Positions 24,617 to 47,921 of a DNA stretch of 47,921 nt are shown piece after piece. The DNA lies in IMG/VR virus record IMGVR_UViG_3300021082_000007; one strand, given 5' to 3'. The notes below the pieces were generated by a model. It was not told the DNA's origin, did no database searches, and was given only the letters and a program-made list of their open reading frames with translations. This stretch comes from a virus. The position numbers and the translations under genes are program-made. Numbering within the stretch: the first letter of the stretch is position 1; each line of letters opens with the position of its first letter.

Positions 24617-25303
24617 TTATATGCTCGCGGCCAGCGCGTTACCGAGGCCCTGGCCGGCCACGCCGGCGCCGGCTTGCGCTAACCCGCCCGCGGCGCCGCC
24701 ACCGTACTGTGTGATCTTGATCGGCTCGACCGCCTTGGCGACGTTGTAGGCGCTAAGGATGCCGCTGCGCTCGTTGCCGGCCAGGCGAATGTCTTGTCCC
24801 GCCGTATTAAGAATTGTATTGGCGCGGTTGGTCAGGCCGTACTGCGAGCCGCCATATGATTGGACATCGGCCAGCGCGGCGATGCGCTTGCGGGCTTCGA
24901 TCGCGGCCTGCTGGATGTGTCCCTGGATCGCAGTCTTCATCTCCTCGGAGCCATGCTGCTGGCCCGAGAACATCGCCCCGGCGATCGCGTTCGGATCGCC
25001 CTCGGCCTGGGCGGCGACTTCCTCCGGCGTCAGCGAGGTCTTCAGCCGTTCGGATTCACTCTCCTGCGCCGCGGTCTGCTTCTTGGCGCCGAGCTCCTCC
25101 AGCGCGCCCTCGCGGCCGGCTTCGGCATTGCGCCGCAGATCCTCGTCGCGTTGCAGATAGTTCTGCGACTGCCGGCGCTGGTAGGCGACCCACTGATCGT
25201 TCGCCGACTGCTGCTTGCTCGCCATGTCTTGCTGCTGCTGCATGTTGTACAGCGACATGCCGATCGAGAAGCCCAGGCCAATGATCGAGATCGGGTCACA
25301 CAT
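24617..25303 (-). CDS. Structural-module protein with N-terminal hydrophobic segment (228 aa)
   Basis: MCDPISIIGLGFSIGMSLY, then Gln/Glu-rich helical sequence. Confidence 0.45.
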   Translation of the reverse strand: MCDPISIIGLGFSIGMSLYNMQQQQDMASKQQSANDQWVAYQRRQSQNYLQRDEDLRRNAEAGREGALEELGAKKQTAAQESESERLKTSLTPEEVAAQAEGDPNAIAGAMFSGQQHGSEEMKTAIQGHIQQAAIEARKRIAALADVQSYGGSQYGLTNRANTILNTAGQDIRLAGNERSGILSAYNVAKAVEPIKITQYGGGAAGGLAQAGAGVAGQGLGNALAASI

Positions 25304-25306
25304 GGG

Positions 25307-25948
25307 TTAGCTCGTTACGGTTCCAGATCCACTCTCGCGGCCGGTCCTGGCGTTGAGCTGACGCTGGGCTTCGGCCTGGCCGGTCACTGCCGGGATGGCC
25401 GAGCCCAGGCCGATCGCAATCGGCTTGAACATATCGCCAAGCGCGGCGACGTTCGGCGTCTGCAACTGCGCGTTCGCCGCAGAGGTCGCCGCAGTGTTCG
25501 CCGCGACCGTCGGGTCTTCGGTGGCGTACAGCTGGTTGTAGGCTTGCTGCTGTTGCGCGGCGATGCTCTTGCGCAGGTCCGACGTGTCGGTGTCGGCCTT
25601 GGCGCGCAGCCCTGCTTCGTTCACTGCCTGCTGATCGGTCAGCTTGCCTTGCACGAAGCCGGCGGCACCCGATCGTAACAATCCAGCGCGTGCGAGATCC
25701 GCTTCGGCCGTGCGCTTGGCTTCGCCGTACTGCTTCTGCAACTGCGGCAGCGTGTAGTCCAGCTCGGCTTGCTGGTACTTGTTGTAGAACGGGTCGCCGA
25801 AGTTATCGTTGCCGAAGATGCTATCGATCGCACTCTTGCCTTGGTTGAGCCGTGCCTGGCGCGCGTTCTCTTTGTCGCGGGCTTCCTGGGCCTGCTGCAT
25901 CTCGAACTGCACCATTTGGTTGTTCGATGGTCCGCTTTTGCCACCCAT
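25307..25948 (-). CDS. Structural-module protein, MGGK N-terminus (213 aa)
   Basis: Starts MGGKSGPS; Gln/Ala-rich helical. Confidence 0.45.
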   Translation of the reverse strand: MGGKSGPSNNQMVQFEMQQAQEARDKENARQARLNQGKSAIDSIFGNDNFGDPFYNKYQQAELDYTLPQLQKQYGEAKRTAEADLARAGLLRSGAAGFVQGKLTDQQAVNEAGLRAKADTDTSDLRKSIAAQQQQAYNQLYATEDPTVAANTAATSAANAQLQTPNVAALGDMFKPIAIGLGSAIPAVTGQAEAQRQLNARTGRESGSGTVTS

Positions 25949-25957
25949 GTCAGCACC

Positions 25958-26308
25958 TCATACTTGCGCGTTAGGATCTACCGCCGCCGCCTTGCCGTAG
26001 TCGGCCCAGAAGTTCGGCGGCGTCAGCACGGCTTTGGCCGCCACGTCGCCGGTTGTCGTTGCCGTGTCGGCCACGGCCTCGCCCGCCGAGATAGCGGCAG
26101 TGGTGTCTGGCTTTGAAGTGTCCTCGGCCGGCTTCTTCGCGGTCGCATCCGCGGCCGCTTTCTTGACGTTGATATTCTCCTGGTAGCCGCTCAGGTCGAG
26201 CGGCTTCTTGGCGGCCAGCGTCTTCTCCGCTTCCTCGACCGTCGCGTTGCCCGAATGATCTGCCGGCTCCTGGTAGTAGTTGCCGCCGCCGCCACCTTTG
26301 CCGCCCAT
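25958..26308 (-). CDS. Small-protein family member 5 (116 aa), MGGK N-terminus
   Basis: MGGKGGGGGNYY...; C-terminus TTTGDVAAKAVLTPPNFW...NAQV is related to the family motif. Confidence 0.5.
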   Translation of the reverse strand: MGGKGGGGGNYYQEPADHSGNATVEEAEKTLAAKKPLDLSGYQENINVKKAAADATAKKPAEDTSKPDTTAAISAGEAVADTATTTGDVAAKAVLTPPNFWADYGKAAAVDPNAQV

Positions 26309-26315
26309 GGTTCAC

Positions 26316-26717
26316 CTACTTGGTTACGCTGAGACTGCCGGCGCCGGATGCGCTGGATTTATTAGGCGCGCGCTGCCACTGCGACGGCAGCACGGTGCTG
26401 GCCAGCTTCGCCCCGGTCGATGTCGGCGGCGCGCCCGCGGGTGCGATCGGAGTGGCGATCGGCCCGCCAGGCGAGATCGCCGGCCCGAGCGGCGCCACGG
26501 GTTCGGGTGCCGCGGGCGCTGCTGCGACCGGCGCTGCAACCGGCGGCGCCACGGGTGCCGGCGGCAGCGTCGGTGCCACGAACGGCTCCGGCTCCGGCGC
26601 GGGCGGGGGCGCCCCCGTTGTCGACATGATGGTCGGATCCCCCGGCCATTTGCCGAAGTTGTTTCGCCGGATGTTCATGGCGTTGATGGCGTTGTCGATC
26701 TCGGCTTGGGTCGGCAT
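26316..26717 (-). CDS. Pro/Ala-rich small-protein family member 1 (133 aa)
   Basis: C-terminus TSTGAKLASTVLPSQWQRAPNKSSASGAGSLSVTK. Confidence 0.55.
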   Translation of the reverse strand: MPTQAEIDNAINAMNIRRNNFGKWPGDPTIMSTTGAPPPAPEPEPFVAPTLPPAPVAPPVAAPVAAAPAAPEPVAPLGPAISPGGPIATPIAPAGAPPTSTGAKLASTVLPSQWQRAPNKSSASGAGSLSVTK

Positions 26718-26724
26718 GGCTATC

Positions 26725-27192
26725 CTACTTGGTCAGGCTGAGACTGCCGGCGCTGGATGATTTGTTCGGCGCGTGCTGCCACTGCGACGGCAGCACGGTG
26801 TTCGCGAGCTTCGCGCCGGTCGAGATCGGCGCCGCGGTGGTCTGTAGCTTGCTGCCGCTGCTGATCGGACTACCGGCTGAGATCGGGTCGCCGAGCGGCG
26901 CATTCGGGTCGACCGCGGGCGTCACGGGTGCCGCGGCCGCGGGCGCTGCGATCGGCGCCTCGACCGGGGGCGCTACTGGCGCCGGCGCCGGCTCCGGCGC
27001 GGGCGCCGCCGCGGGTGCTTCCGGCGCAGGCGGCGGGATCCAGTTCGGGTCGGTTTCCTTGTTCCAGAAGTTGCCGTAGCCGTCGTATTCAGGCGGCAGT
27101 GCCGGGTTGCGGATCCATGACCCATAGCCGTCGTAGATCGTGTCCGGCTGCTCCGTCCACGTCCCGTAACCGTCATATGTTCTGTACGGCAT
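26725..27192 (-). CDS. Pro/Ala-rich small-protein family member 2 (155 aa)
   Basis: Three YDGYG(x)W repeats at the N-terminus; C-terminus ISTGAKLANTVLPSQWQHAPNKSSSAGSLSLTK. Confidence 0.55.
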   Translation of the reverse strand: MPYRTYDGYGTWTEQPDTIYDGYGSWIRNPALPPEYDGYGNFWNKETDPNWIPPPAPEAPAAAPAPEPAPAPVAPPVEAPIAAPAAAAPVTPAVDPNAPLGDPISAGSPISSGSKLQTTAAPISTGAKLANTVLPSQWQHAPNKSSSAGSLSLTK

Positions 27193-27199
27193 GGCTGGC

Positions 27200-27544
27200 C
27201 TACTTGGTCACGTTGATGCTGCCGCCGGTATTGGACGGCTGCGGTTTCGGCATGTGCTGCCACTGCGGCGGCAGCACGGTCTGCGCTATCTTTGATCCGG
27301 TCGAGGTCGGCGGCGGGCCGCCCGCGGGAGCGATCGGAACGCCAGGTGAGATCGATGGGCCGAGCGGCTCGACCGGCGCCGGCTCGACCGGCGCGGCTGC
27401 GACCGGGGCGGCCACCGGCGGCGCCACCGGCGCGGGCGGTAGCACGGGCGGCACGAACTCAGGCTCCGGCGGCGGCTCCGGCGCCGCGGTCCATCCCGGC
27501 GTGCCGCCCCAGTGGTAGTTGCCGCCTATGTCGGTCCAGCCCAT
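27200..27544 (-). CDS. Pro/Ala-rich small-protein family member 3 (114 aa)
   Basis: ATG 27544 abuts the upstream stop; C-terminus TSTGSKIAQTVLPPQWQHMPKPQPSNTGGSINVTK. Confidence 0.55.
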   Translation of the reverse strand: MGWTDIGGNYHWGGTPGWTAAPEPPPEPEFVPPVLPPAPVAPPVAAPVAAAPVEPAPVEPLGPSISPGVPIAPAGGPPPTSTGSKIAQTVLPPQWQHMPKPQPSNTGGSINVTK

Positions 27545-27546
27545 GG

Positions 27547-27894
27547 CTACACCTGCCCTGTGGTTGTCATGCTGCCACCGCCCTGCTGCGCCTTCATCTG
27601 ATCGGTCCACATTGCCGGTGCGGTGACCGATTGCGCGAGCTTGCTGCCGGTATCCTGCGTGGTCTGGATGGCGCCGTCGGTAGCCTGCGGCGGGGCCGGC
27701 TCGCCCTGCGGCGCAGCCGCAGCGGGAGCTGCCTGCTCTTGCGCGGCCGCCTGCGCAGGCGCCGCGGCCGGCTGCGCTTCGGGTGCCGCGGCCGGCTGCT
27801 CTTTGTCCCAGCCCCAGTTGTTCGCTCGGGCCAGCGGACCCCAGGTGATCGCATCGCCGCCAGGCGGCGCCCCACCTTTGCCCTTGCCGCCCAT
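27547..27894 (-). CDS. Small-protein family member 4 (115 aa), MGGK N-terminus
   Basis: MGGKGKGGAPPGG...; C-terminus DTGSKLAQSVTAPAMW...TTGQV. The ATG overlaps the upstream TGA by 1 nt. The longer track ORF to 28152 is Arg-rich run-in. Confidence 0.5.
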   Translation of the reverse strand: MGGKGKGGAPPGGDAITWGPLARANNWGWDKEQPAAAPEAQPAAAPAQAAAQEQAAPAAAAPQGEPAPPQATDGAIQTTQDTGSKLAQSVTAPAMWTDQMKAQQGGGSMTTTGQV

Positions 27895-28412
27895 CAGAGC
27901 ACCTTCCTGAAGATCATGCCGACCGCCTCGGCGCCGAAGTGCCGGCCGACCATGTTCATCAACGAGTTCTGCTCGGGCATGCCCGAGCAGATCGGAAAGT
28001 TGATCACCTTGCAGCCGTCGGCGCGGGCGAGCTCGATCACCATGCCGACCAGGCGCCGGCCGAGGTCGGTGCGTTGATACTTCGGGATGGTGTAAGTCTC
28101 GTCCATCACGCCCATCGGATCGGAGAACACATCGAACACATGGTAGGAGCAAACGCCGACCATCTTGTTGTCGTCCAGCGTATCCAGCGCGATGACGTAC
28201 ATCGCGAACTGGGTGCCGATCGCGCGGCGCAGGTGTGCGATGGTCTTGTCCTTGCGATAGTTCAGGTGCGCTGCCCAGATCGAACGATGGAAGAACTCGC
28301 CGAGGAAGTCGGCGACCATCTCGGCATCGGCAGCCTCGGCCATGCGGACGTTAATGTGCGGAGTACGCACACTCCGTTTGGGCTTTGGCAATTCGGTCAC
28401 CGCTATATTCAT
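27894..28412 (-). CDS. GNAT-family acetyltransferase-like protein
   Basis: INVRMAEAADAEMVADFL (beta1/alpha1) and IPKYQRTDLGRRLVGMVIELARADGCKVI (motif A-like). Confidence 0.55.
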   Translation of the reverse strand: MNIAVTELPKPKRSVRTPHINVRMAEAADAEMVADFLGEFFHRSIWAAHLNYRKDKTIAHLRRAIGTQFAMYVIALDTLDDNKMVGVCSYHVFDVFSDPMGVMDETYTIPKYQRTDLGRRLVGMVIELARADGCKVINFPICSGMPEQNSLMNMVGRHFGAEAVGMIFRKVL

Positions 28413-28869
28413 CAGCTAGCCATCGGTATGAGACAAAGTCCTCGCCCTCGATTCCATAGCCGGTCAGCGTGCCTTCGGCTTTGGCACCGATCAAACTCAT
28501 AAATCTGCGGACATCGTCGCGTCGTCGTAACGCCACCGCCTCGACCCGGTGGATACCAACATCGACTAGCATGGGCAGAACAAACGCCCTGATCTGCCGC
28601 ACCATTGGTAGCACGGCGCGTCCCCAATCGTCAGTGCCGAAGGCGAAGCCGGCGGCCACACCCTGGCGCTTTATCACGGCGCCCCAGACCGCGATCGGGC
28701 CGCAGTCGAAGCCCCAGGCGCAGAACGCAAACAGCTTGTGCCGCATGATCTGCTCGGCGAGCCGACTGATGTCGGTGCCGGCCGCGGCGATCTCGATGGC
28801 GTCGTCGCGGCGCAGGTTGTTCAGCACATGCTGGATCATTCCAGCGTCGGCAAGGGCTACGTCGATCAT
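28351..28869 (-). CDS. Acetyltransferase-fold-like protein at the T7 gp13 position
   Basis: IHRVEAVALRRRDDVRRFMSLIGAKAEGTLTGYGIEGEDFVSYRW resembles the C-terminal half of GNAT proteins; directly follows the nozzle-like gene. Confidence 0.4.
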   Translation of the reverse strand: MIDVALADAGMIQHVLNNLRRDDAIEIAAAGTDISRLAEQIMRHKLFAFCAWGFDCGPIAVWGAVIKRQGVAAGFAFGTDDWGRAVLPMVRQIRAFVLPMLVDVGIHRVEAVALRRRDDVRRFMSLIGAKAEGTLTGYGIEGEDFVSYRWLADEYSGDRIAKAQTECAYSAH

Positions 28870-30302
28870 CCGGTTTCGCCCCCTTGGTAGTGCACCACCA
28901 TGTTGGACAAAGTCTGCGGGCCGATCTCCTCCGACCGCAGCCGCAGCGACATGTGGGTGGCGTGGCCGTGGATCTCGATGCGGCCTTGCGGGAATGTCGG
29001 GCCGTCGAACACGCCGATCTCGTCTTCGACATCGGGGTCTTCGACATTGAACGCTGCCGATACTGTCCAGGGGATGCCGGCGCAGGTGGCATCCAGGCCG
29101 GTGAATGTCTTGAAGGTCGCCACGCCTTCGCCGGCGTGGAACGGGAAGATCAGCTCGACCGGGCAGGCGTCATAGACGGGGCCGAGATCGGAGATGCCGC
29201 CGTAGGCGTAGACGGTATTGTTGTCGTCGCGCACCACCACATGATCGTTATGCAGGCATGCCGCGGTAATGACGAAGCCGGCGTCGTACTCGGACCAAGC
29301 AGTGATCTTAGGACCAGGAAACGCCGACAGCACATAGATCTTGGATGTCAGCGGCGCGCCCTCGTAATCCTGCGAGCCGGCCATGATAATCCAAAACCGA
29401 CCTGTTACAGGTTGCAGCAGCGCGATCGTACCGCTCATCCAATCCCGGCCCATGAACCGGAACAGATCCTGTAACAGCGGATCGAGCGGGCTGCCGATGT
29501 CCGACACCGCCGCGGCCAGCGAGCTGTTGCGCGCTCGCAGCGATCGCACGCCCGACTGCGACATGTACATCACGTCGCCGGATCCATATTGCAGCACGCT
29601 GCGCCACGCCGTTGTGCCGGCCTGGCGCAAGGTCTGGACGTATTGGTTCTTGGTGAAGTCAGGATCCATGATCCACAGCTGCACCGCGGTCGAGCTAAAG
29701 ATCGCCAGCTTGTCGTAGTAGACCTCAAGGGCGACCGAGTCGGTCATGTCAGAATCGCCCATCGACAGGTCGATGAAGTTGGTGGGATTAGGCGGCGTCA
29801 TGCCGGACCAATCGCCGGCGTTGCCGATCGCCGAGAAGTACAGCGTGCTGGCCTCGACCGTGTACATCTTGTTCTTGTAGGTCCGGCAATAGAATCCTCT
29901 CGCCAACGGCAGGTTCAAGCCGTCGTAGTAGCGACCGACCGTGCCGGCGGCGTCCTTCCACAGAATGACGAACACTTTGTTGTCGAACAGATCGTAGTCG
30001 ATGATCTCGTAGATCGTCGTAGTCTGCTGCCCGAGCACGCCGATCGACCACTGACCGGATGGCGGCTCGACCTTGTATGGTCCGTTAGGCCCGAAGGTGT
30101 AGAGCTTCTGGTTGACCTCGACTAATCCCCTGCTGGCTGCGTCGACCGTCCAGAACGGCACGAACGCCATGCGCTTCTCGATCTCGCCGCCTGGCGTGAC
30201 GTGCGCGTTGCGCATGCTGCGCAGCGTTCCCGCGGGCGCGGTCAGCGCCGACCTGCGAAGATCCAGACCGGCAGCGAAGTCGGTGATGGTGAAATAGGGC
30301 AA
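28866..30302 (-). CDS. Tail tubular protein B / nozzle-like protein
   Basis: The N-terminus ITDFAAGLDLRRSALTAPAGTLRSMRNAHVTPGGEIEKR parallels the T7 gp12 N-terminus (LKGGISQQPDILRYPDQGSRQVNGWSSETEGLQKR). Gene order also fits. Confidence 0.45.
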   Translation of the reverse strand: MPYFTITDFAAGLDLRRSALTAPAGTLRSMRNAHVTPGGEIEKRMAFVPFWTVDAASRGLVEVNQKLYTFGPNGPYKVEPPSGQWSIGVLGQQTTTIYEIIDYDLFDNKVFVILWKDAAGTVGRYYDGLNLPLARGFYCRTYKNKMYTVEASTLYFSAIGNAGDWSGMTPPNPTNFIDLSMGDSDMTDSVALEVYYDKLAIFSSTAVQLWIMDPDFTKNQYVQTLRQAGTTAWRSVLQYGSGDVMYMSQSGVRSLRARNSSLAAAVSDIGSPLDPLLQDLFRFMGRDWMSGTIALLQPVTGRFWIIMAGSQDYEGAPLTSKIYVLSAFPGPKITAWSEYDAGFVITAACLHNDHVVVRDDNNTVYAYGGISDLGPVYDACPVELIFPFHAGEGVATFKTFTGLDATCAGIPWTVSAAFNVEDPDVEDEIGVFDGPTFPQGRIEIHGHATHMSLRLRSEEIGPQTLSNMVVHYQGGETG

Positions 30303-31591: not shown

Positions 31592-31663
31592 GGTGTCTCC
31601 CTATGAAAAGCCGGGACGCGCTAAGGAGTGTCCGCTCCCCCGCGCGCCCCAGCCGCGCTGCGA

Positions 31664-40009: not shown

Positions 40010-41322
40010 GCGTATCCAGTGGCAACCCAAGTGCCATCAGCGACCTGAATCTGAAACTGGCGAAAGCGGGCGGTGAAAGCATTGTACGAGCTTGGGCCGC
40101 TTATCCCGGTGATACCGGCCCCGCCCCACGGCTCTTGCAGAGGACCATTGAACCCGCAATCCACGTCGCCGAGGTATACCCACCGCGCGTTGATCAGCGG
40201 GTTGCCGGGGTTGTTGCTGAAGTCGCGTGTCGTCCAGAACCTGTAGGCCACGCCTTCGCCGTGCGACCAGCCGCCCATGTAGAAGTTGCCGTCGGTATTC
40301 ATGCCGAAGTTGGCGCCGAAGTAGCCCTGGCAGTGGAAGGCGATAGTCGGATAGGGCGGGCCTTGCACCATGACGCTGGAGGGTGTCGCCGAGGCGAAGT
40401 AGACGCCATTGTTGTAGAAGGTGTGATTAACATTGCTGGGATGGGTAGATCCGCCGTTGGCGGCGAGCAAGCCGCTGAACGTGCCGGCGCCGGCAGTAAT
40501 GCCGCCGCCGACCCCCAGACCGCCGCTCGGCATAATGTAGTTGGTGCCGTCGAAGCCGACGTAGTGGGCCTGGTTGCTGCCGAGAAAGACGTAGCCGACG
40601 TTAGCGCCGCGGTAGCTGTAAGTATCGGCGGCGACCTTCAAGTCGCCGGTCATGGTATCGCCGGTCTTGCTGACCTTGCCGGCAAGGGCAGTGGCGTTGG
40701 TGCTATCGCCGGCGTCGACGTAGTCCTTGCGCACGGCATTGGCCGCAGCTGGCACGGTCGGCAGCGACAGATGTCCGGTCATGGTCCCGCCGGCCTTGGC
40801 GACCTTCTCGGCTTCCAGCTCGGCGATCGCGTCCTGCACGTTGGTGGCGGCGATCGCGCCGGTGGCGGTCGACGGAATCAAGGCCGCGTTCGGCGGCGGC
40901 GGGGTGGAGTCGTCAACGTACTTCCGGGTGGCCGCCTCTAGATCGGTGGATGGAGCGCCGGCCAGGACCAGCGGCCCGGTCATGGTGCCGCCGGCCTTGG
41001 GCAGGTAGCTGCTCAGATCGGTGGAATCGCCTGGGTCTCGGGTGGCGGCAAACCACTGCGCCGGATTGAAGGCGCCAGGCGAGATGTTGGCTTGCGCGAC
41101 ATAGAGCTTGCCGGCGTTGGCGACGAAGTCGCCGGCGGCGTATTGCGACCGCGTATCGAAGTAGCGCACCGCAATCAGGAACAGCGGCTGGCCGTCGGCG
41201 ACGTTGCCGACCGCCATCTGCCGGTTGGCGGTATTGACGTAGACCTCGCCCTTTTCCAGGGTCGGGGCTACAGCGGCAGGGCTGCCGTCGCGGCGATGGC
41301 GATAGTGCGAGGTCATGGTCAA
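40006..41322 (-). CDS. Tail fibre protein (paralogue A)
   Basis: The N-terminal ~95 aa are homologous to 44128..45867 (VNTANRQ.AVG, A.RYFD.R..YAAGD.V..AGKLY). It has repeated GGTMTG.L.L...AA.A..K.YVD fibre motifs. Confidence 0.8.
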   Translation of the reverse strand: MTMTSHYRHRRDGSPAAVAPTLEKGEVYVNTANRQMAVGNVADGQPLFLIAVRYFDTRSQYAAGDFVANAGKLYVAQANISPGAFNPAQWFAATRDPGDSTDLSSYLPKAGGTMTGPLVLAGAPSTDLEAATRKYVDDSTPPPPNAALIPSTATGAIAATNVQDAIAELEAEKVAKAGGTMTGHLSLPTVPAAANAVRKDYVDAGDSTNATALAGKVSKTGDTMTGDLKVAADTYSYRGANVGYVFLGSNQAHYVGFDGTNYIMPSGGLGVGGGITAGAGTFSGLLAANGGSTHPSNVNHTFYNNGVYFASATPSSVMVQGPPYPTIAFHCQGYFGANFGMNTDGNFYMGGWSHGEGVAYRFWTTRDFSNNPGNPLINARWVYLGDVDCGFNGPLQEPWGGAGITGISGPSSYNAFTARFRQFQIQVADGTWVATGYA

Positions 41323-43361
41323 TTGCCCGGTTGAGTTGGCGGGGTGAAGTTAGCAGTCCACAACGCCTTGCCCTTGGTAACACGGAACTCATCGATGTAG
41401 CCGGTCCAGTAGTTGGTGTTGTTGCCGATCGCGCCGATCACGAACGACCAGGTGCTGACGTAGATCGGAAACATGCCGTAGTCGTTCGGTCCCGCGTCTA
41501 GCACACCATCGAGCCACGATCTGAAAACGCCAGCCTGTCTGGTTACAGCCCAGTGGTGCCACGCATTGGGTGTGACATCGTGAACGCCAACCACGCCCTG
41601 GGTAACCCAATCGCTGCCGGTCTTACCAAACCAGCACTGCATACGGTTGTCGGTGCCCATTAGCGCGCCGTGCGATAGTTCTGTCAGGCTTGGATTACAT
41701 CGGCCAAACAGTCCGCGGTTAACACCGGGGGAGCCGGTATTGTAGAGCCAGCAGTCGATGGTGAAATCACTAGTGCCGAAGTTCAGACTGGCTGGAGCTG
41801 TCGGAACGTAGCAGAGCTGGCCGCCGCTGAAGAGTGCAGCCGCGGTGCCAAACTTCTTCTGTTGTATATCGATAACCGCGGTGGCCTTCTGTACTACCTG
41901 CCGCTCTCGCGAACTGTCGTTGAAATTGCCGTCGAAGTGCAGCAGCAGCACAGTCTTGTCGGGATTGAGGGGGAGCAGCTCGGCTGGTGGCGTGAACTCG
42001 GCGGTCCACAGTGCCTTGCCGATAACGAAGCGCACCTCGTCTATGTAGCCCTTGAAACGGTTCTCGCCGGCATCGCCCATGCCGCCTATCCGCAGCGGCC
42101 CGGTGTAGTCTTTAAACGATGTTCCGGCAGGTATCGCGAAACCAGACCGCAAAGTGCCGTTGACGTAGATCTGAACCGCAGTGCCATTGCGGACGACTGC
42201 AACGTGCGTCCAAGTATTGAACGGAACGGCAGCTCCAGGCGATCCGGTGAAATACACTTGCACGCCGGCGTTGTTCGCATCCGATACAACCGCGCCATCC
42301 GAATTGATGTACAACATCAGATGACGGTTGTTGTAATCGCCGGCACCATCCATCTGTGTGATGACCGCGTAGTTGTCGCCGGCAGCGGGATAGTCGCTAA
42401 TATAGACCCAGGCGTCGGCAGTGAAATCCTGGGTGCCTATGACCCAGTGTGCGTGATCCGGGTAGCTGACGTAGCATTGCGCCGCCCGGTTCAGGTACAG
42501 CGAAAAAGCGCCGCCGAATGGCGTCGGGGTAATCGATGAAATGGCCGCGCCGCCGGAAGCTGTGGCGAGGCCGCGCTTGTACTGCGACGAGTCCGCCAGG
42601 TTATCGAAGTGCATCAGCAGCACTGTGTTCAGGTCTGGTTCTGGTCCGTACTGTGCATTCGGTGGCGTGAAGTTAGCGGTCCACCTGGCAATGCCGTTGC
42701 TGACGCGGAACTCATCGATATGGCCGTACATGTAGGCGTAGCCGCCGGGATTAGTCCAAGCACCAAGGCACGGACCGTAGGTGCAGATATTGAAGACGCC
42801 GTTGCCGCCAACCGCCTGGGTGCCTTGCAATATGCCGTTCTGGAACGTGTAGAACGTGCCACCTTTGCGCACGATCGCGCGATGGCACCATGCACCGACC
42901 TGGCGATTTCCCATCGGCAGTGAAGCGGCCAAATTCCAAGTCGCTTGGTCGTTGGAGGCGTAAAAATACAGTGCGTCTGTTCCCCAGCCGACTAGCATGG
43001 GAACATACACTACACCCAGCGTGTCCCACTCGAATGAAGGACGAGCGACCGTGTTGTCGTGGCAGTATTCCCACCAATCGATCGTGAAGTCGTTGTCGGA
43101 CAGGTTAAATGAATTATCCAGGTTGACCGGCGAATAACACAAACCGTTCTGGGTATTAAGCGACAAAGACGTGGGGCCAAACTTGCCGCCGGCACTTATA
43201 ATCCCGTTTGATATGACAACCGGCCCGTTCTGCTTTCGTGAATAATCAATAGCGTATGCCGAGCCTTGCGGCCCGTCGAAGTGCATGAGCCACGTCACAT
43301 AGGCGTCGTTGTAGAGCGTGTCGTCGCTGGGAATACTGAAGCCGAGGCCGCGCTTGCTCAT
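41319..43361 (-). CDS. Triple LamG/concanavalin-like lectin-domain protein (receptor-binding candidate)
   Basis: Three repeats of the L(L)HFDG...DSS...FG.AA..F.G......(T)SDFTID.W pattern. ATG 43361 forms an ATGA overlap with the upstream stop (track start 43421 is a GTG). Confidence 0.65.
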   Translation of the reverse strand: MSKRGLGFSIPSDDTLYNDAYVTWLMHFDGPQGSAYAIDYSRKQNGPVVISNGIISAGGKFGPTSLSLNTQNGLCYSPVNLDNSFNLSDNDFTIDWWEYCHDNTVARPSFEWDTLGVVYVPMLVGWGTDALYFYASNDQATWNLAASLPMGNRQVGAWCHRAIVRKGGTFYTFQNGILQGTQAVGGNGVFNICTYGPCLGAWTNPGGYAYMYGHIDEFRVSNGIARWTANFTPPNAQYGPEPDLNTVLLMHFDNLADSSQYKRGLATASGGAAISSITPTPFGGAFSLYLNRAAQCYVSYPDHAHWVIGTQDFTADAWVYISDYPAAGDNYAVITQMDGAGDYNNRHLMLYINSDGAVVSDANNAGVQVYFTGSPGAAVPFNTWTHVAVVRNGTAVQIYVNGTLRSGFAIPAGTSFKDYTGPLRIGGMGDAGENRFKGYIDEVRFVIGKALWTAEFTPPAELLPLNPDKTVLLLHFDGNFNDSSRERQVVQKATAVIDIQQKKFGTAAALFSGGQLCYVPTAPASLNFGTSDFTIDCWLYNTGSPGVNRGLFGRCNPSLTELSHGALMGTDNRMQCWFGKTGSDWVTQGVVGVHDVTPNAWHHWAVTRQAGVFRSWLDGVLDAGPNDYGMFPIYVSTWSFVIGAIGNNTNYWTGYIDEFRVTKGKALWTANFTPPTQPGN

Positions 43362-44131
43362 GCGATCAGGCTCCCGCACAGCACCCAAACATCCGTACTG
43401 ATCTTCGACAACGTCGCGCACGAACCCATCAACGGCAGTTTGCGCTTGCTGTTTTCGGAATTGATGGTGACGCCGGCGCCAGGCACGATGGTCACCACAT
43501 TGGCGATCGATGAAGCAATATCGATCTGCGCACCAAAAGCGAACGGCACCGTGGCATTGGTCGGCACGGTGATGCTAACCGCATTGCTGGGACCGTTGAA
43601 GATCGACAGCAGCTTGCCGGCGTCAGACAGGATGAGTGTGTAAGCCGTAACGCCGATGTTATTGATCGCCCGCACGCCGGCATCGACGTACTGCTTGGTG
43701 GCAACGCCAAGCAGTTGCGTTGGGTCTTTGGCGACGTAGATTTCACTATTAGCCCGATTAATCTGTATGGCATTGGCAGCGCCAGACACGCCGTCGTCGT
43801 CGTAGCGCACCAGTGTAAAACTAGATCCGGTATTGCCGCCGCTTTCGGCATCACCTCCCAATCGCCACAGCCAACGCCGCTTACCGTTTCTGTTAAATCG
43901 GACATCAGCGGTATTGCCGCCGATAACATCGTTGAGGGCCAAGACCGGCGACGTTTTATCAATCGTCAGATCGCCGGTCATCGTGTCGCCAGCCTTCAGG
44001 ACGAACTGCGCAGCTGGCGCCACCGCAACCCAGGCGACGCCATTCCACTGATATTGCGGCATGCCGACGACTGCCGGGACCGGGTAGAGGTCATTGATGG
44101 CTGGCGAGGATGGAAAGTTGATGCCCATCAC
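43358..44131 (-). CDS. Tail fibre protein
   Basis: INFPSSPAINDLY ... YQWNGVAWV N-terminus, GDTMTGDLTI and ATKQYVD motifs. Confidence 0.7.
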   Translation of the reverse strand: MMGINFPSSPAINDLYPVPAVVGMPQYQWNGVAWVAVAPAAQFVLKAGDTMTGDLTIDKTSPVLALNDVIGGNTADVRFNRNGKRRWLWRLGGDAESGGNTGSSFTLVRYDDDGVSGAANAIQINRANSEIYVAKDPTQLLGVATKQYVDAGVRAINNIGVTAYTLILSDAGKLLSIFNGPSNAVSITVPTNATVPFAFGAQIDIASSIANVVTIVPGAGVTINSENSKRKLPLMGSCATLSKISTDVWVLCGSLIA

Positions 44132-46550: not shown

Positions 46551-47921
46551 GGCGGCAGCACCACCGGCACATGCGGCCTAAACCAGATCGCCCAGAACCG
46601 GGAATCGACCGGCGGCGCCACTGTCATTGTCAAAGTGCTGCCGCTGGCGTTGAAGTCGACCGCGGGCTCCTGGATAACTCCATCCAGACTGACCATCAGC
46701 TGCGCGCCGATGCCGATCGAGGTCGCGACCGCCGGCGGACCCGCGGTCGGATCGATGTAAGTCAGCGTGAAGGTTTTCTTGGTGCCGTCCGGGATCAGCG
46801 GCTCGACTTTGAAGCAGTCCACCTTGGCAGAATTGATCTGATCGGGCGGGATCATCAGATCCCACTGAATGACCGCGCCGGCGCCGGGTGCTTCAACGAG
46901 CGTCATGGAATCGGCGTTGACGTCGACGGTGTAATCGAAGGTTGGCAGGATCCGCACGCCGTTGAGGTAAACGTCATGCCCCTCATTGCTAAACAGCGGC
47001 GCCTTGCCGTTGATATCGAGGCCGCTGAACGTCACCTGGCCGGCGGTGGCGATGTAGACGTAGCGGGCTCGGAATCCCGGCGCGACGGTGACGCCTGGCG
47101 GCTGCCAAGCCGTGCCGTCCCAGACCATGATCGAGTTCTTGGTGGTGTCATAATAGAAACTGCCGATCGCCAGCGGGTCCGGCACCTTCTCACCCGTATT
47201 CGGGTTGGTTTCGCCGGGAATCGGTTGATAAGACCACGGCCCGAGGTAGTAGAAACCGATATTGCCGACCAATTGCTGGCAATAAACCGCCCACCACTTG
47301 GCCGAAAACAACCCACCGAGGCCGCCCATGCCGGAAACCGGCTGGTAGAACAAACCATCGGGAAAAGCCGAGCTGTTGATGAAATCCAACGCCGTGGAAT
47401 TATCAATAACCGGGCCGCCGAGGTACTCGGCCCACTGCAAAGCCTCATCTTTGGCCGCAATGGCGTTGTCGGCTTGCGCATCCGAGTAGTTTGCCGAGTT
47501 CTTGGCGTCGATCGCGGCAGATTCTGCTCTGTCCGCGGCGTTTTCCGCGTCGGAGGCGGAATCCAGCGCGTTGACGTTGCCGTGTGAGATCGCGCTGAGC
47601 ATTTGCGCGGCGGAAATCGCCGCGGCCTCGGCATCACTGGCTCTGAGATCGGTATCGCGGCCGCTTTGGACGACGACGCTGATCGCGTCGGCGGTTTTAT
47701 CGGCCGCGGCGACGATGCGATGCTCGATATCGGTGACTTCTGCGCGAATGTGTTTTAGATCGAAGCTGAGTTGCTCCTGGCCGACGCTGTTGTTTGCTAT
47801 TTTTCCGTCATCGCGGCGGATATCGGCCAGCGCAGCCTGGGTGGATTCTATCGCGACGATGAGATTGGCGATCTGCGCATCGAGCAAGTCGGCCGGGACC
47901 GCGCCACGCGGGCGTTCGGAA
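46547..47921 (-). CDS. Tail-fibre/tail-associated structural protein; 5' end runs off the window (continues at 128..165 in the circle)
   Basis: First gene of the late block. N-terminal Ala-rich coiled coil, then two beta-rich segments (YVYIATAGQVTFSGLDING...VYLNGVRIL...DYTV ; FTLTYID...VSLDGVIQEP.VDF) reminiscent of T7-fibre N-terminal-type domains. Confidence 0.55.
   Translation of the reverse strand, partial: SERPRGAVPADLLDAQIANLIVAIESTQAALADIRRDDGKIANNSVGQEQLSFDLKHIRAEVTDIEHRIVAAADKTADAISVVVQSGRDTDLRASDAEAAAISAAQMLSAISHGNVNALDSASDAENAADRAESAAIDAKNSANYSDAQADNAIAAKDEALQWAEYLGGPVIDNSTALDFINSSAFPDGLFYQPVSGMGGLGGLFSAKWWAVYCQQLVGNIGFYYLGPWSYQPIPGETNPNTGEKVPDPLAIGSFYYDTTKNSIMVWDGTAWQPPGVTVAPGFRARYVYIATAGQVTFSGLDINGKAPLFSNEGHDVYLNGVRILPTFDYTVDVNADSMTLVEAPGAGAVIQWDLMIPPDQINSAKVDCFKVEPLIPDGTKKTFTLTYIDPTAGPPAVATSIGIGAQLMVSLDGVIQEPAVDFNASGSTLTMTVAPPVDSRFWAIWFRPHVPVVLPP
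47795..47921. repeat. Right copy of the exact 127-bp terminal duplication (= 1..127)
   Basis: Identical to bases 1-127. Confidence 0.95.

Follow-up and report, generated by a model that had tools for sequence, protein, structure and literature searches.

Five tandem genes for small, extended proteins beside the putative ejection genes of an uncultured podophage group

What role is played by five short genes that stand back to back in the late operon of a phage, differ widely in the middle of their products, and end in related peptides? The question is posed by the viral DNA of IMG/VR record IMGVR_UViG_3300021082_000007, a stretch of 47,921 nucleotides (nt) that we refer to as a whole as the window, in which a sequence-only reading had described five tandem open reading frames (ORFs) with gaps of at most 7 nt. 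All five are present, on the minus strand, and are named here S5, S4, S3, S2, and S1 in the order of their transcription (Table 1); the YDGYG repeats, MGGK starts (in two of the five genes), and APVAPPVAAP linkers that the same reading listed are likewise there. With about even confidence, we regard this array as a lineage-specific tandem expansion of small extended proteins that would act as virion-packaged or ejected accessories and dock through their C-terminal module.

The array is one family of protein-coding genes

The array ORFs are real genes under purifying selection, since the G+C content at third codon positions (GC3) is 0.79 to 0.87 in the called frame of the five genes and the ratio of nonsynonymous to synonymous substitution rates (dN/dS) against orthologues from other contigs is 0.18 to 0.56. 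The region has a GC content of about 70% and long ORFs in several frames, which might favor the view that the array consists of chance ORFs in GC-rich low-complexity DNA, but we place the probability of this close to nil: in addition to the GC3 and dN/dS values, frame, starts, and stops are kept in dozens of contigs, and a family profile matches one of the genes with an expect (E) value of 5e-30. The genes are tightly packed, with intergenic gaps of 2, 7, 7, and 7 nt and a further 9 nt from S1 to the next gene, and the ATG of S5 overlaps by one base the stop codon of the preceding gene, which encodes a GNAT protein. A Shine-Dalgarno sequence of the AGGTG or TAGGA type lies ahead of each array start. 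For S4, the start was set at the ATG at position 27544 and a longer GTG-initiated ORF was discarded, because orthologues begin MPWNDIGG or MPWTDIGG.

Hidden Markov models (HMMs) trained on distant relatives only were run on all 544 ORFs of the window. The C-terminal-only model finds S1 (E = 4e-11) and S5 (E = 3e-5), and the full-length model finds S1 (5e-30), S3 (6e-7), S2 (4e-5), and S5 (1e-4), the next-best ORF being that of p213, the gene that follows the array, which is picked up through its N-terminal head. S4 has no significant score of its own (E = 0.3) and is included because it shares 64% amino acid identity with S2. The five genes form one family. The C-terminal module that the sequence-only reading had ascribed to all five exceeds a chance resemblance: the C-terminal-only model bears it out in S1 and S5, and S2 and S3 are recovered by the full-length model. 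The module is also conserved outside this genome, given that models of distant relatives recover the window's members and that 74 protein clusters are matched elsewhere (see below).

An alignment of 59 representatives yields the family consensus MGGKGGGGG, a spacer, P.G..I..G, TG..LA..VL.PP..W, 15 to 25 residues, and GS..TT.. at the C terminus. The C-terminal module thus contains the motif P[LI]G.PI, a short helix with TG..LA..VL, the motif PP.(Y/F)W, and then GS..TTQT, a Ser/Thr-rich strand that ends in Q[TV] or, in derived paralogues, in TK; the Gly of TG and the Trp are kept in at least 90% of the 59 representatives. The N-terminal MGGKGGGG head, which the sequence-only reading overlooked together with its counterpart in p213, is the more widely conserved end. 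It opens as MGGK in 55 of the 74 distinct gene calls from the first of two IMG/VR scans (the 74 include two calls later found to be mis-framed), and 33 of these 55 read MGGKGGGG. The head is lost only in internal paralogues of the window's subclade, with starts of MPW, MPY, or MPT, and these include the window's three internal paralogues (S2, S3, and S4); within the window, MGGK starts belong to S5, S1, and p213 only. Between the two ends, spacers of 61 to 163 amino acids (aa; median, 79) are rich in Ala (21%) and Pro (17%), and in relatives, they take Pro/Ala, Ala/Lys, and Pro/Thr forms such as poly-Pro, PTPTPDPTP, EEPVVEEKK, and AADKAAADKAA.

The array proteins are predicted to lack a globular fold and to be intrinsically extended. 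An AlphaFold2 model of S2, built from a 30-sequence alignment, has a predicted template modeling score (pTM) of 0.20 and contains helices at residues 4 to 20 and 101 to 109 (TGAKLAST) only. No transmembrane segment was detected among 72 members, in which the top Kyte-Doolittle value over 19 residues is 1.3 and none exceeds 1.6.

A Lys in the head may be linked to a Gln close to the C terminus. Gln occurs within the last three residues of 47 of 56 MGGK-headed members (TTQT, TGQV, or NAQV), and in the 18 members that lack the head, the last residue is always Lys or Arg (VTK, TTK, or TTR); the headless members make up one subclade, so this link may reflect about one evolutionary event. One metagenomic protein of 189 aa (P0011) has two MGGKG heads, at residues 1 and 47 of a single ORF; either two array genes have fused or its start was called too far upstream.

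S2, S3, and S4 are recent paralogues. Nucleotide comparison of the array copies reveals a 78-nt repeat with 87% and 72% identity, a 45-nt repeat that runs across the stop codon, the spacer, and the next start with 87% and 69% identity, and a 129-nt linker repeat with 77% identity. The recent duplication proposed by the sequence-only reading is upheld by these repeats, which reach 87% identity between copies. The nearly identical 3' ends that it cited were quoted correctly and belong to 26316..26717 and 26725..27192, not to its first and second members, and the internal half-copy SGSKLQTTAAP, also a correct string, lies in S3 (26725..27192) and not in its second member. S1 is the best-conserved gene of the array.

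Distribution of the array and its place in the late operon

The first 127 nt of the window recur at its end (1 to 127 equals 47795 to 47921), for which reason we take it to be a complete, circularly assembled genome of about 47.8 kb; contigs of its relatives measure 46 to 48 kb. The genome is of the podophage type, with a replication module that includes a family A DNA polymerase, a PD-(D/E)XK nuclease, and an SNF2 helicase, and with a single long late operon on the minus strand. This operon runs from the large terminase through an 863-aa portal, a 354-aa putative scaffold, the major capsid protein, and a 159-aa protein to an SU10-type adaptor, a 478-aa hub (28866..30302) resembling P22 gp10, a protein of the T7 gp13 family (phrog_308), and a canonical GNAT protein (PF00583), and then on to the five array genes, p213, p228, and proteins of 583, 776, and 1,002 aa. 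Promoter-like and terminator-like sites were looked for on the minus strand from 17 to 36.9 kb and none was found, which, with the gaps of 2 to 9 nt and the Shine-Dalgarno-like sequences, indicates that the array genes are probably cotranscribed and translationally coupled with the structural genes. The gene order agrees with the earlier placement of the family between genes in the gp13 position and large putative internal virion proteins.

With the hub protein as query, two IMG/VR scans, each limited to 80 loci, yielded about 150 of the more than 540 related loci. Loci whose hub is at least 63% identical to that of the window have 2 to 5 small genes between the GNAT gene and p213, whereas 18 loci with hub identities of 51 to 61% have no array, and in these, the GNAT stop overlaps the p213 start. 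Two small genes occur in L078, a lineage with 48% hub identity. A comparison of copy number in related phages, as the sequence-only reading had suggested, thus gives a range of 0 to 5. The array always lies between the GNAT gene and p213, upstream of the putative ejection proteins; the S1 type, which is orthologous across loci, is last in every array-bearing relative but L078, S5 orthologues take the first position in the closest relatives, and the genes in the middle differ in number from locus to locus.

The family is conserved well beyond the window genome and is confined to one group of uncultured phages. A word-indexed search of 5.8e9 proteins produced 28 matches, all from JGI, ENA, or Logan metagenomes and none with a Pfam domain; one is named "membrane protein involved in colicin uptake," the name of the TolA COG, on account of its Ala/Lys spacer. 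An exhaustive HMMER search of 1.84e9 representatives produced 74 clusters, 48 of them with an E value of 1e-10 or lower; all are proteins of 45 to 201 aa, most are matched over their whole length, and none carries the module on a larger protein or an enzyme. In 50,697 records of cultured phages, neither megablast with the region nor tblastn with two array members produced a match.

The five window proteins have no Pfam (E ≤ 0.01), PHROG, or NCBIfam match, and the 59 family members tested against PHROGs have no real match, the sole one being at chance level (E = 0.0097). A PDB sequence search with the family profile (alignment A4) gave nothing significant, and searches of PDB with the profiles of the array, p213, and p228 gave just a Pro/Ala linker (E = 0.008), that of an E2 acyltransferase, which is the best PDB sequence match of the array. 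By these searches, the family appears to be unannotated and previously unnamed, in keeping with the earlier remark that it was not recognized.

The only cultured relatives of the phage are Microcystis phage Mae-Yong1326-1 (L001) and Rhizobium phage RHph_N65, and both lack small genes in the interval from the acetyltransferase to the p213 homologue. Their homologues of the hub and of the 583-aa protein are annotated as "packaged DNA stabilization protein," the name used for P22 gp10, and "putative injection protein," respectively, and BLASTP detects no similarity between the 776- and 1,002-aa proteins and the giant Mae-Yong protein. The host is very probably a Gram-negative alphaproteobacterium, because prophage relatives reside in Rhizobiales, Brucella anthropi, and other Alphaproteobacteria. 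Mae-Yong1326-1 is described with a 340-nm flexible tail (PMC9503304); its structural module is podophage-like and collinear with the window, which makes the morphology or the assignment of phage to host doubtful.

Two further regions of these genomes deserve mention. After the capsid gene, the close relatives L164 (7025 to 7300) and L165 (6982 to 7221) have a small gene matching PF24729 (Acb2_Tad1_hairpin, a family of anti-defense sponges), for which the window has merely a 72-nt gap (31592 to 31663). The probable receptor-binding proteins are a 700-aa product of the window (41319 to 43421, minus strand), in which Laminin_G_3, a concanavalin-like lectin domain, occurs three times, and its 438-aa neighbor, for which tail-fiber-like PHROG matches were obtained.

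Table 1. Genes of the array and its immediate neighbors in the window, in order of transcription
Gene	Positions	Strand	Length (aa)	N terminus and body	C-terminal end	C-terminal module	Matches
gp13-like	28351..28869	-	172	Predicted GNAT fold			phrog_308, E = 2.7e-9
GNAT	27894..28412	-	172				PF00583, E = 7e-8; phrog_1249, E = 2e-10
S5	27547..27894	-	115	MGGKGKGG start	TGSKLAQSVTAPAMW...GGSMTTTGQV	27550-27651	
S4	27200..27544	-	114	MGWTDIGG start; Pro-rich spacer	TGSKIAQTVLPPQW...GGSINVTK	27203-27301	
S3	26725..27192	-	155	Three YDGYG repeats; Pro/Ala spacer	TGAKLANTVLPSQW...AGSLSLTK	26728-26820	
S2	26316..26717	-	133	N-terminal helix; Pro/Ala spacer	TGAKLASTVLPSQW...GSLSVTK	26319-26417	
S1	25958..26308	-	116	Start MGGKGGGGGNYYQEP (MGGKGGGGG)	TGDVAAKAVLTPPNFW...PNAQV	25961-26053	
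p213	25307..25948	-	213	MGGKSGPS start; mostly helical by prediction			
p228	24617..25303	-	228	MCDPIS start; M1, C2, and P4 invariant (25 aligned relatives)			

Candidate roles and their precedents

The small disordered virion proteins of podophages offer the closest precedents; reportedly, it was not until 2024 that T7 gp6.7 and gp7.3 were located in the structure. The slot that follows the hub gene holds gp14, gp7, gp20, and gp16 in P22 and gp13 to gp16 in T7, and the size classes found here fit the scheme of gp14-like, gp15-like, and gp16-like proteins (PMC8954989). We favor a role for the array proteins as lumen or ejection accessories because their neighborhood, their size, the lack of a fold, the Gly/Lys head, and the strand-prone end peptide (GSLSVTK, GGSINVTK, or GSMTTTGQV) match T7 gp7.3, T7 gp6.7, and P22 gp7. 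What is new is the lineage-specific array family, and the kind to which it would belong, that of small disordered podophage virion or ejection proteins, is known.

In T7, only residues 84 to 98 of gp7.3 are ordered, in six copies anchored to the nozzle protein gp12, while residues 1 to 83 are disordered in the channel around the DNA end, and gp7.3 is proposed to be the first protein ejected (PMC11784390). At about 100 aa, it is mostly disordered, with a Met-Gly-Lys-Lys start (MGKKVKK) and a conserved C-terminal peptide (KKSLSVARSSGGGINI, the end of the protein reading GGKKSLSVARSSGGGINI) that recalls the GSLSVTK and GGSINVTK of the array; the array proteins (97 to 204 aa in this comparison) are, by prediction, likewise small and mostly disordered, with a conserved C-terminal peptide. 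Unlike the array, gp7.3 is a single-copy protein encoded upstream of the portal gene, and its body is rich in Lys and not in Pro/Ala. No Pfam or PHROG match links the array to gp7.3 (PF11653, VirionAssem_T7; phrog_1320, against which 59 members were compared), and HHalign with alignment A4 gives a probability of 0.1%. T7 gp6.7 (PF17570), also small and mostly unstructured, is ordered only in short loops, which bridge the portal and core; it is ejected and is later part of the outer membrane channel (PMC11784390); it differs from the array in beginning M-C, as does p228, and not M-G-G-K, and it has no sequence similarity to the array.

According to its annotation, P22 gp7 (phrog_598; L092, 2370 to 3059) has a 20-residue leader removed by host OpdA, which leaves a mature KGGKGGADK start that resembles the MGGKGG of p213 and the array. 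The order of genes is also alike, namely, the gp10 hub, a small assembly gene, and ejection proteins, and gp7 is stored in the portal lumen and docks on the gp10 hub (bioRxiv 10.64898/2026.09.03.749273). The mature gp7*, a 209-aa helical hairpin, assembles into a dodecameric channel; helices of this kind are missing from the array proteins, which, like p213, have no profile match to gp7. The gp14-like class as a whole (T7 gp14, PF24072; P22 gp7, phrog_598) has no Pfam or PHROG match in the array, and the long helices of its channel-forming hairpin body (about 180 to 240 aa) are absent from the AlphaFold2 model.

From the gene context and by analogy with these proteins, we infer a location in the virion, ejection, and docking by the C-terminal module for the array proteins. 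They would be packaged in the portal-tail lumen or alongside the ejection proteins and would leave before or together with them; the conserved C-terminal peptide would attach to the hub or channel of the tail, with the spacer serving as a ruler or filler of the channel or, once ejected, as a bridge across the periplasm. The MGGK head is probably recognized, and perhaps modified at its N terminus, by the GNAT protein encoded directly upstream.

Several observations weigh against this picture. No sequence or profile test places the array proteins in the gp7.3, gp6.7, gp14, or gp7 families. No cultured phage carries the array family. Because no array is present in phages with hub identities of 51 to 61%, the proteins count as accessory, and sister lineages dispense with them. 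In addition, the array genes were considered as truncated copies of p213, but scores of the C-terminal HMM equaled those of shuffled sequences, and the HHalign resemblance (E = 0.0078 over 12 columns, 5% probability) is not significant, for which reason we claim no paralogy between the array and p213. Finally, Pro/Ala-rich, nonglobular proteins could just as well serve in assembly without ever being packaged.

This last point is the core of an alternative that we judge rather unlikely, in which the array proteins are chaperones or disordered scaffolds that help to load the ejection proteins or the hub, or to bring them into place, during morphogenesis and are then discarded, as T7 gp13 appears to be. 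In virions of the T7-like phage phiPsa17, gp6.7, gp7.3, and gp14 to gp16 were detected and gp13 was not (PMC4517105), which fits an enzymatic or assembly role of gp13 and lends this alternative a precedent; the array, moreover, directly follows two assembly-type genes with GNAT folds (one of them predicted), is nonglobular, and is dispensable in sister lineages. Two conserved termini, a free spacer, and a head in common with p213 nevertheless fit a docked structural component better. Of the alternative that the sequence-only reading offered, a periplasm-spanning set of ejection or adhesion proteins, the ejection part is plausible. A periplasm-spanning role is unlikely as an account of its own; it would refine the ejection reading and does not exclude it. 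On this account, the proteins are ejected tethers mimicking TonB or TolA, with the spacer bridging the outer membrane channel to peptidoglycan, the inner membrane, or a periplasmic host protein and the Ser/Thr-rich C-terminal strand pairing by β-strand addition in the manner of a TonB box. The genomic context speaks for it, as do spacers that match the extended Pro-rich or Ala/Lys-rich linkers of TonB and TolA in length and type (61 to 163 aa; poly-Pro, PTPTP, and AADKAA), the colicin uptake name of one member, the E2 acyltransferase linker as best PDB match, and the Gram-negative hosts indicated by Rhizobiales and Brucella prophage relatives; the array proteins, however, have no N-terminal membrane anchor or other transmembrane segment and no TonB_C or TolA_C domain (by Pfam and by the lack of a globular fold).

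The sequence-only reading had leaned toward a different idea, namely, that the conserved C-terminal peptide marks variable cargo for targeting to, or loading into, the capsid. A short conserved peptide at the end of variable bodies, encoded in a structural module, does recall the cargo-loading peptide (CLP) of encapsulins and the capsid-targeting sequence (CTS) of T4, but the diverse folded cargo of those systems is missing: the bodies are low-complexity spacers with no predicted globular domain, the module is confined to proteins of 45 to 201 aa and is never found on an enzyme or larger cargo, and the N terminus is as conserved or more so. We consider a cargo tag highly improbable. Very unlikely, too, is a role unrelated to the ejection channel, as injected effectors of host takeover or anti-defense or as fibers decorating the virion surface; the fast turnover of copy number and sequence between close relatives resembles an arms race, but dN/dS is below 1 throughout, no promoter is dedicated to the array, the proteins contain neither an enzymatic nor a binding domain, and the position of the genes is strictly tied to the GNAT gene and p213.

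Neighboring genes and the N-terminal residue

The gp13-like protein belongs with phrog_308, as does T7 gp13 (match at 1e-42), and lies directly upstream of the putative ejection protein genes, as T7 gp13 does; it has no match to PF11090 at E ≤ 0.01. It is predicted to have a GNAT fold: its AlphaFold2 model (predicted local distance difference test score [pLDDT], 90; pTM, 0.83) has as top Foldseek matches in PDB only GNAT acetyltransferases (E values of about 1e-10; template modeling scores, 0.6 to 0.7), among them the N-alpha-acetyltransferase RimJ (3igr), and JGI labels two of its homologues as RimJ/RimL family proteins, while its profile has no similarity to that of the GNAT protein. The latter was assigned by a Pfam match to the generic PF00583 only. 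As called, the two genes overlap by 62 nt (28351 to 28412), and relatives again have an overlap of about 58 nt. The GNAT start is uncertain, since initiation at Met 24 of the called protein would fall 8 nt past the gp13-like stop codon.

Downstream of the array, p213 is found in all relatives, with or without array. It shares the MGGK head with the array; G2, G3, and K4 are kept in at least 90% of its sequences (alignment A7), and every close relative has an MGGK[SGA] start. In four lineages, p213 homologues have an insertion of 100 to 140 aa after about residue 48, for totals of 330 to 377 aa (L078, 13135 to 14193; L079, 9144 to 10136; L086, 12333 to 13466; and L118, 3597 to 4634). Judged by its size and position, the p228 protein is of the gp14-like class; its start reads MC[DE]P in members of the main clade, and distant prophages have MCLP or MCNP. 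Sequence and profile comparisons detect no homology of p213, p228, or the large proteins to gp14-like, gp15-like, or gp16-like ejection families; specifically, there is no profile similarity of p228 to T7 gp14 or of either p213 or p228 to P22 gp7, and the lone weak PHROG matches of p213 and p228 to "DNA ejection" or "pilot protein" entries (E values of about 0.005 to 0.009, one member each) are at chance level.

Scoring distant loci with HMMs for the GNAT, gp13-like, p213, and p228 proteins gave 57 distinct hub lineages, in which the second residue of p213 tracks the GNAT gene. The gene is present and p213 begins M-G in 34 of the 57 (M-A in L087); it is absent and p213 begins M-C in 22, e.g., MCRLPGPK in Mae-Yong1326-1, MCFGGGSNN, and MCAKTPKPP. 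One lineage (L118) combines GNAT with M-C, and none combines M-G with the absence of GNAT. Fitch parsimony on a neighbor-joining tree of the hub protein requires three changes of the GNAT state and four of the N-terminal state, with the GNAT changes being a gain in a large clade, a nested loss accompanied by reversion to M-C, and an independent second gain on the RHph_N65 lineage. Since positive gaps are found at many loci without GNAT, the pattern is not accounted for by overlapping genes. The array slot is an insertion hotspot, and the other genes inserted there obey the same rule: two GNAT-positive loci encode Gly-rich proteins of 165 to 183 aa (L111, 7475 to 7972, MGGKAPGGG; L131, 6953 to 7504, MAQVGKPGGG), and the GNAT-negative L098 (6403 to 7551) encodes one of 382 aa that starts MCPTNGST.

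Bacterial methionine aminopeptidase cleaves Met ahead of Gly, Ala, or Cys, and GNAT enzymes include N-terminal acetyltransferases and N-myristoyltransferase. Like the substrates of RimI/J/L and N-myristoyltransferase, the array proteins would expose Gly (or Ala) once Met is removed, and their small second residue (MGGK) goes with a dedicated, coupled GNAT gene directly upstream. The covariation suggests that ejection proteins may be modified at the N terminus: slot proteins would begin with Gly when GNAT is present and with Cys when it is absent, and an N-terminal Cys can gain an N-acyl group by S-acylation and a subsequent S-to-N shift or by way of the gp13-like GNAT. A broader proposal holds that phage GNAT-fold enzymes acetylate or fatty-acylate the N termini of the proteins that podophages eject or carry internally and that the array is an enlarged set of such substrates; this is tentative and, on balance, doubtful. 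It is weakened by the small number of independent events behind the association (only about three) and by T7 gp7.3, which begins M-G though T7 has no second GNAT gene; a literature search on acylation of phage internal proteins found nothing relevant.

Were this proposal true, the long-enigmatic T7 gp13 family would gain a function, and the M-C starts of T7 gp6.7 (MCFSPK), of p228, and of T7 gp14, which presumably also begins M-C, would be explained, with a parallel in the myristoylated entry proteins of eukaryotic viruses. The covariation of the GNAT gene with the N-terminal residue, together with the predicted GNAT fold of the gp13-like protein, turns the function of T7 gp13-type proteins into a question for mass spectrometry. 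Small disordered virion proteins are the least understood part of podophage injection machines; if the array proteins are indeed packaged or ejected accessories, they would show that such proteins can expand to 2 to 5 paralogues, in which conserved termini and free spacers point to a modular docking peptide plus a ruler.

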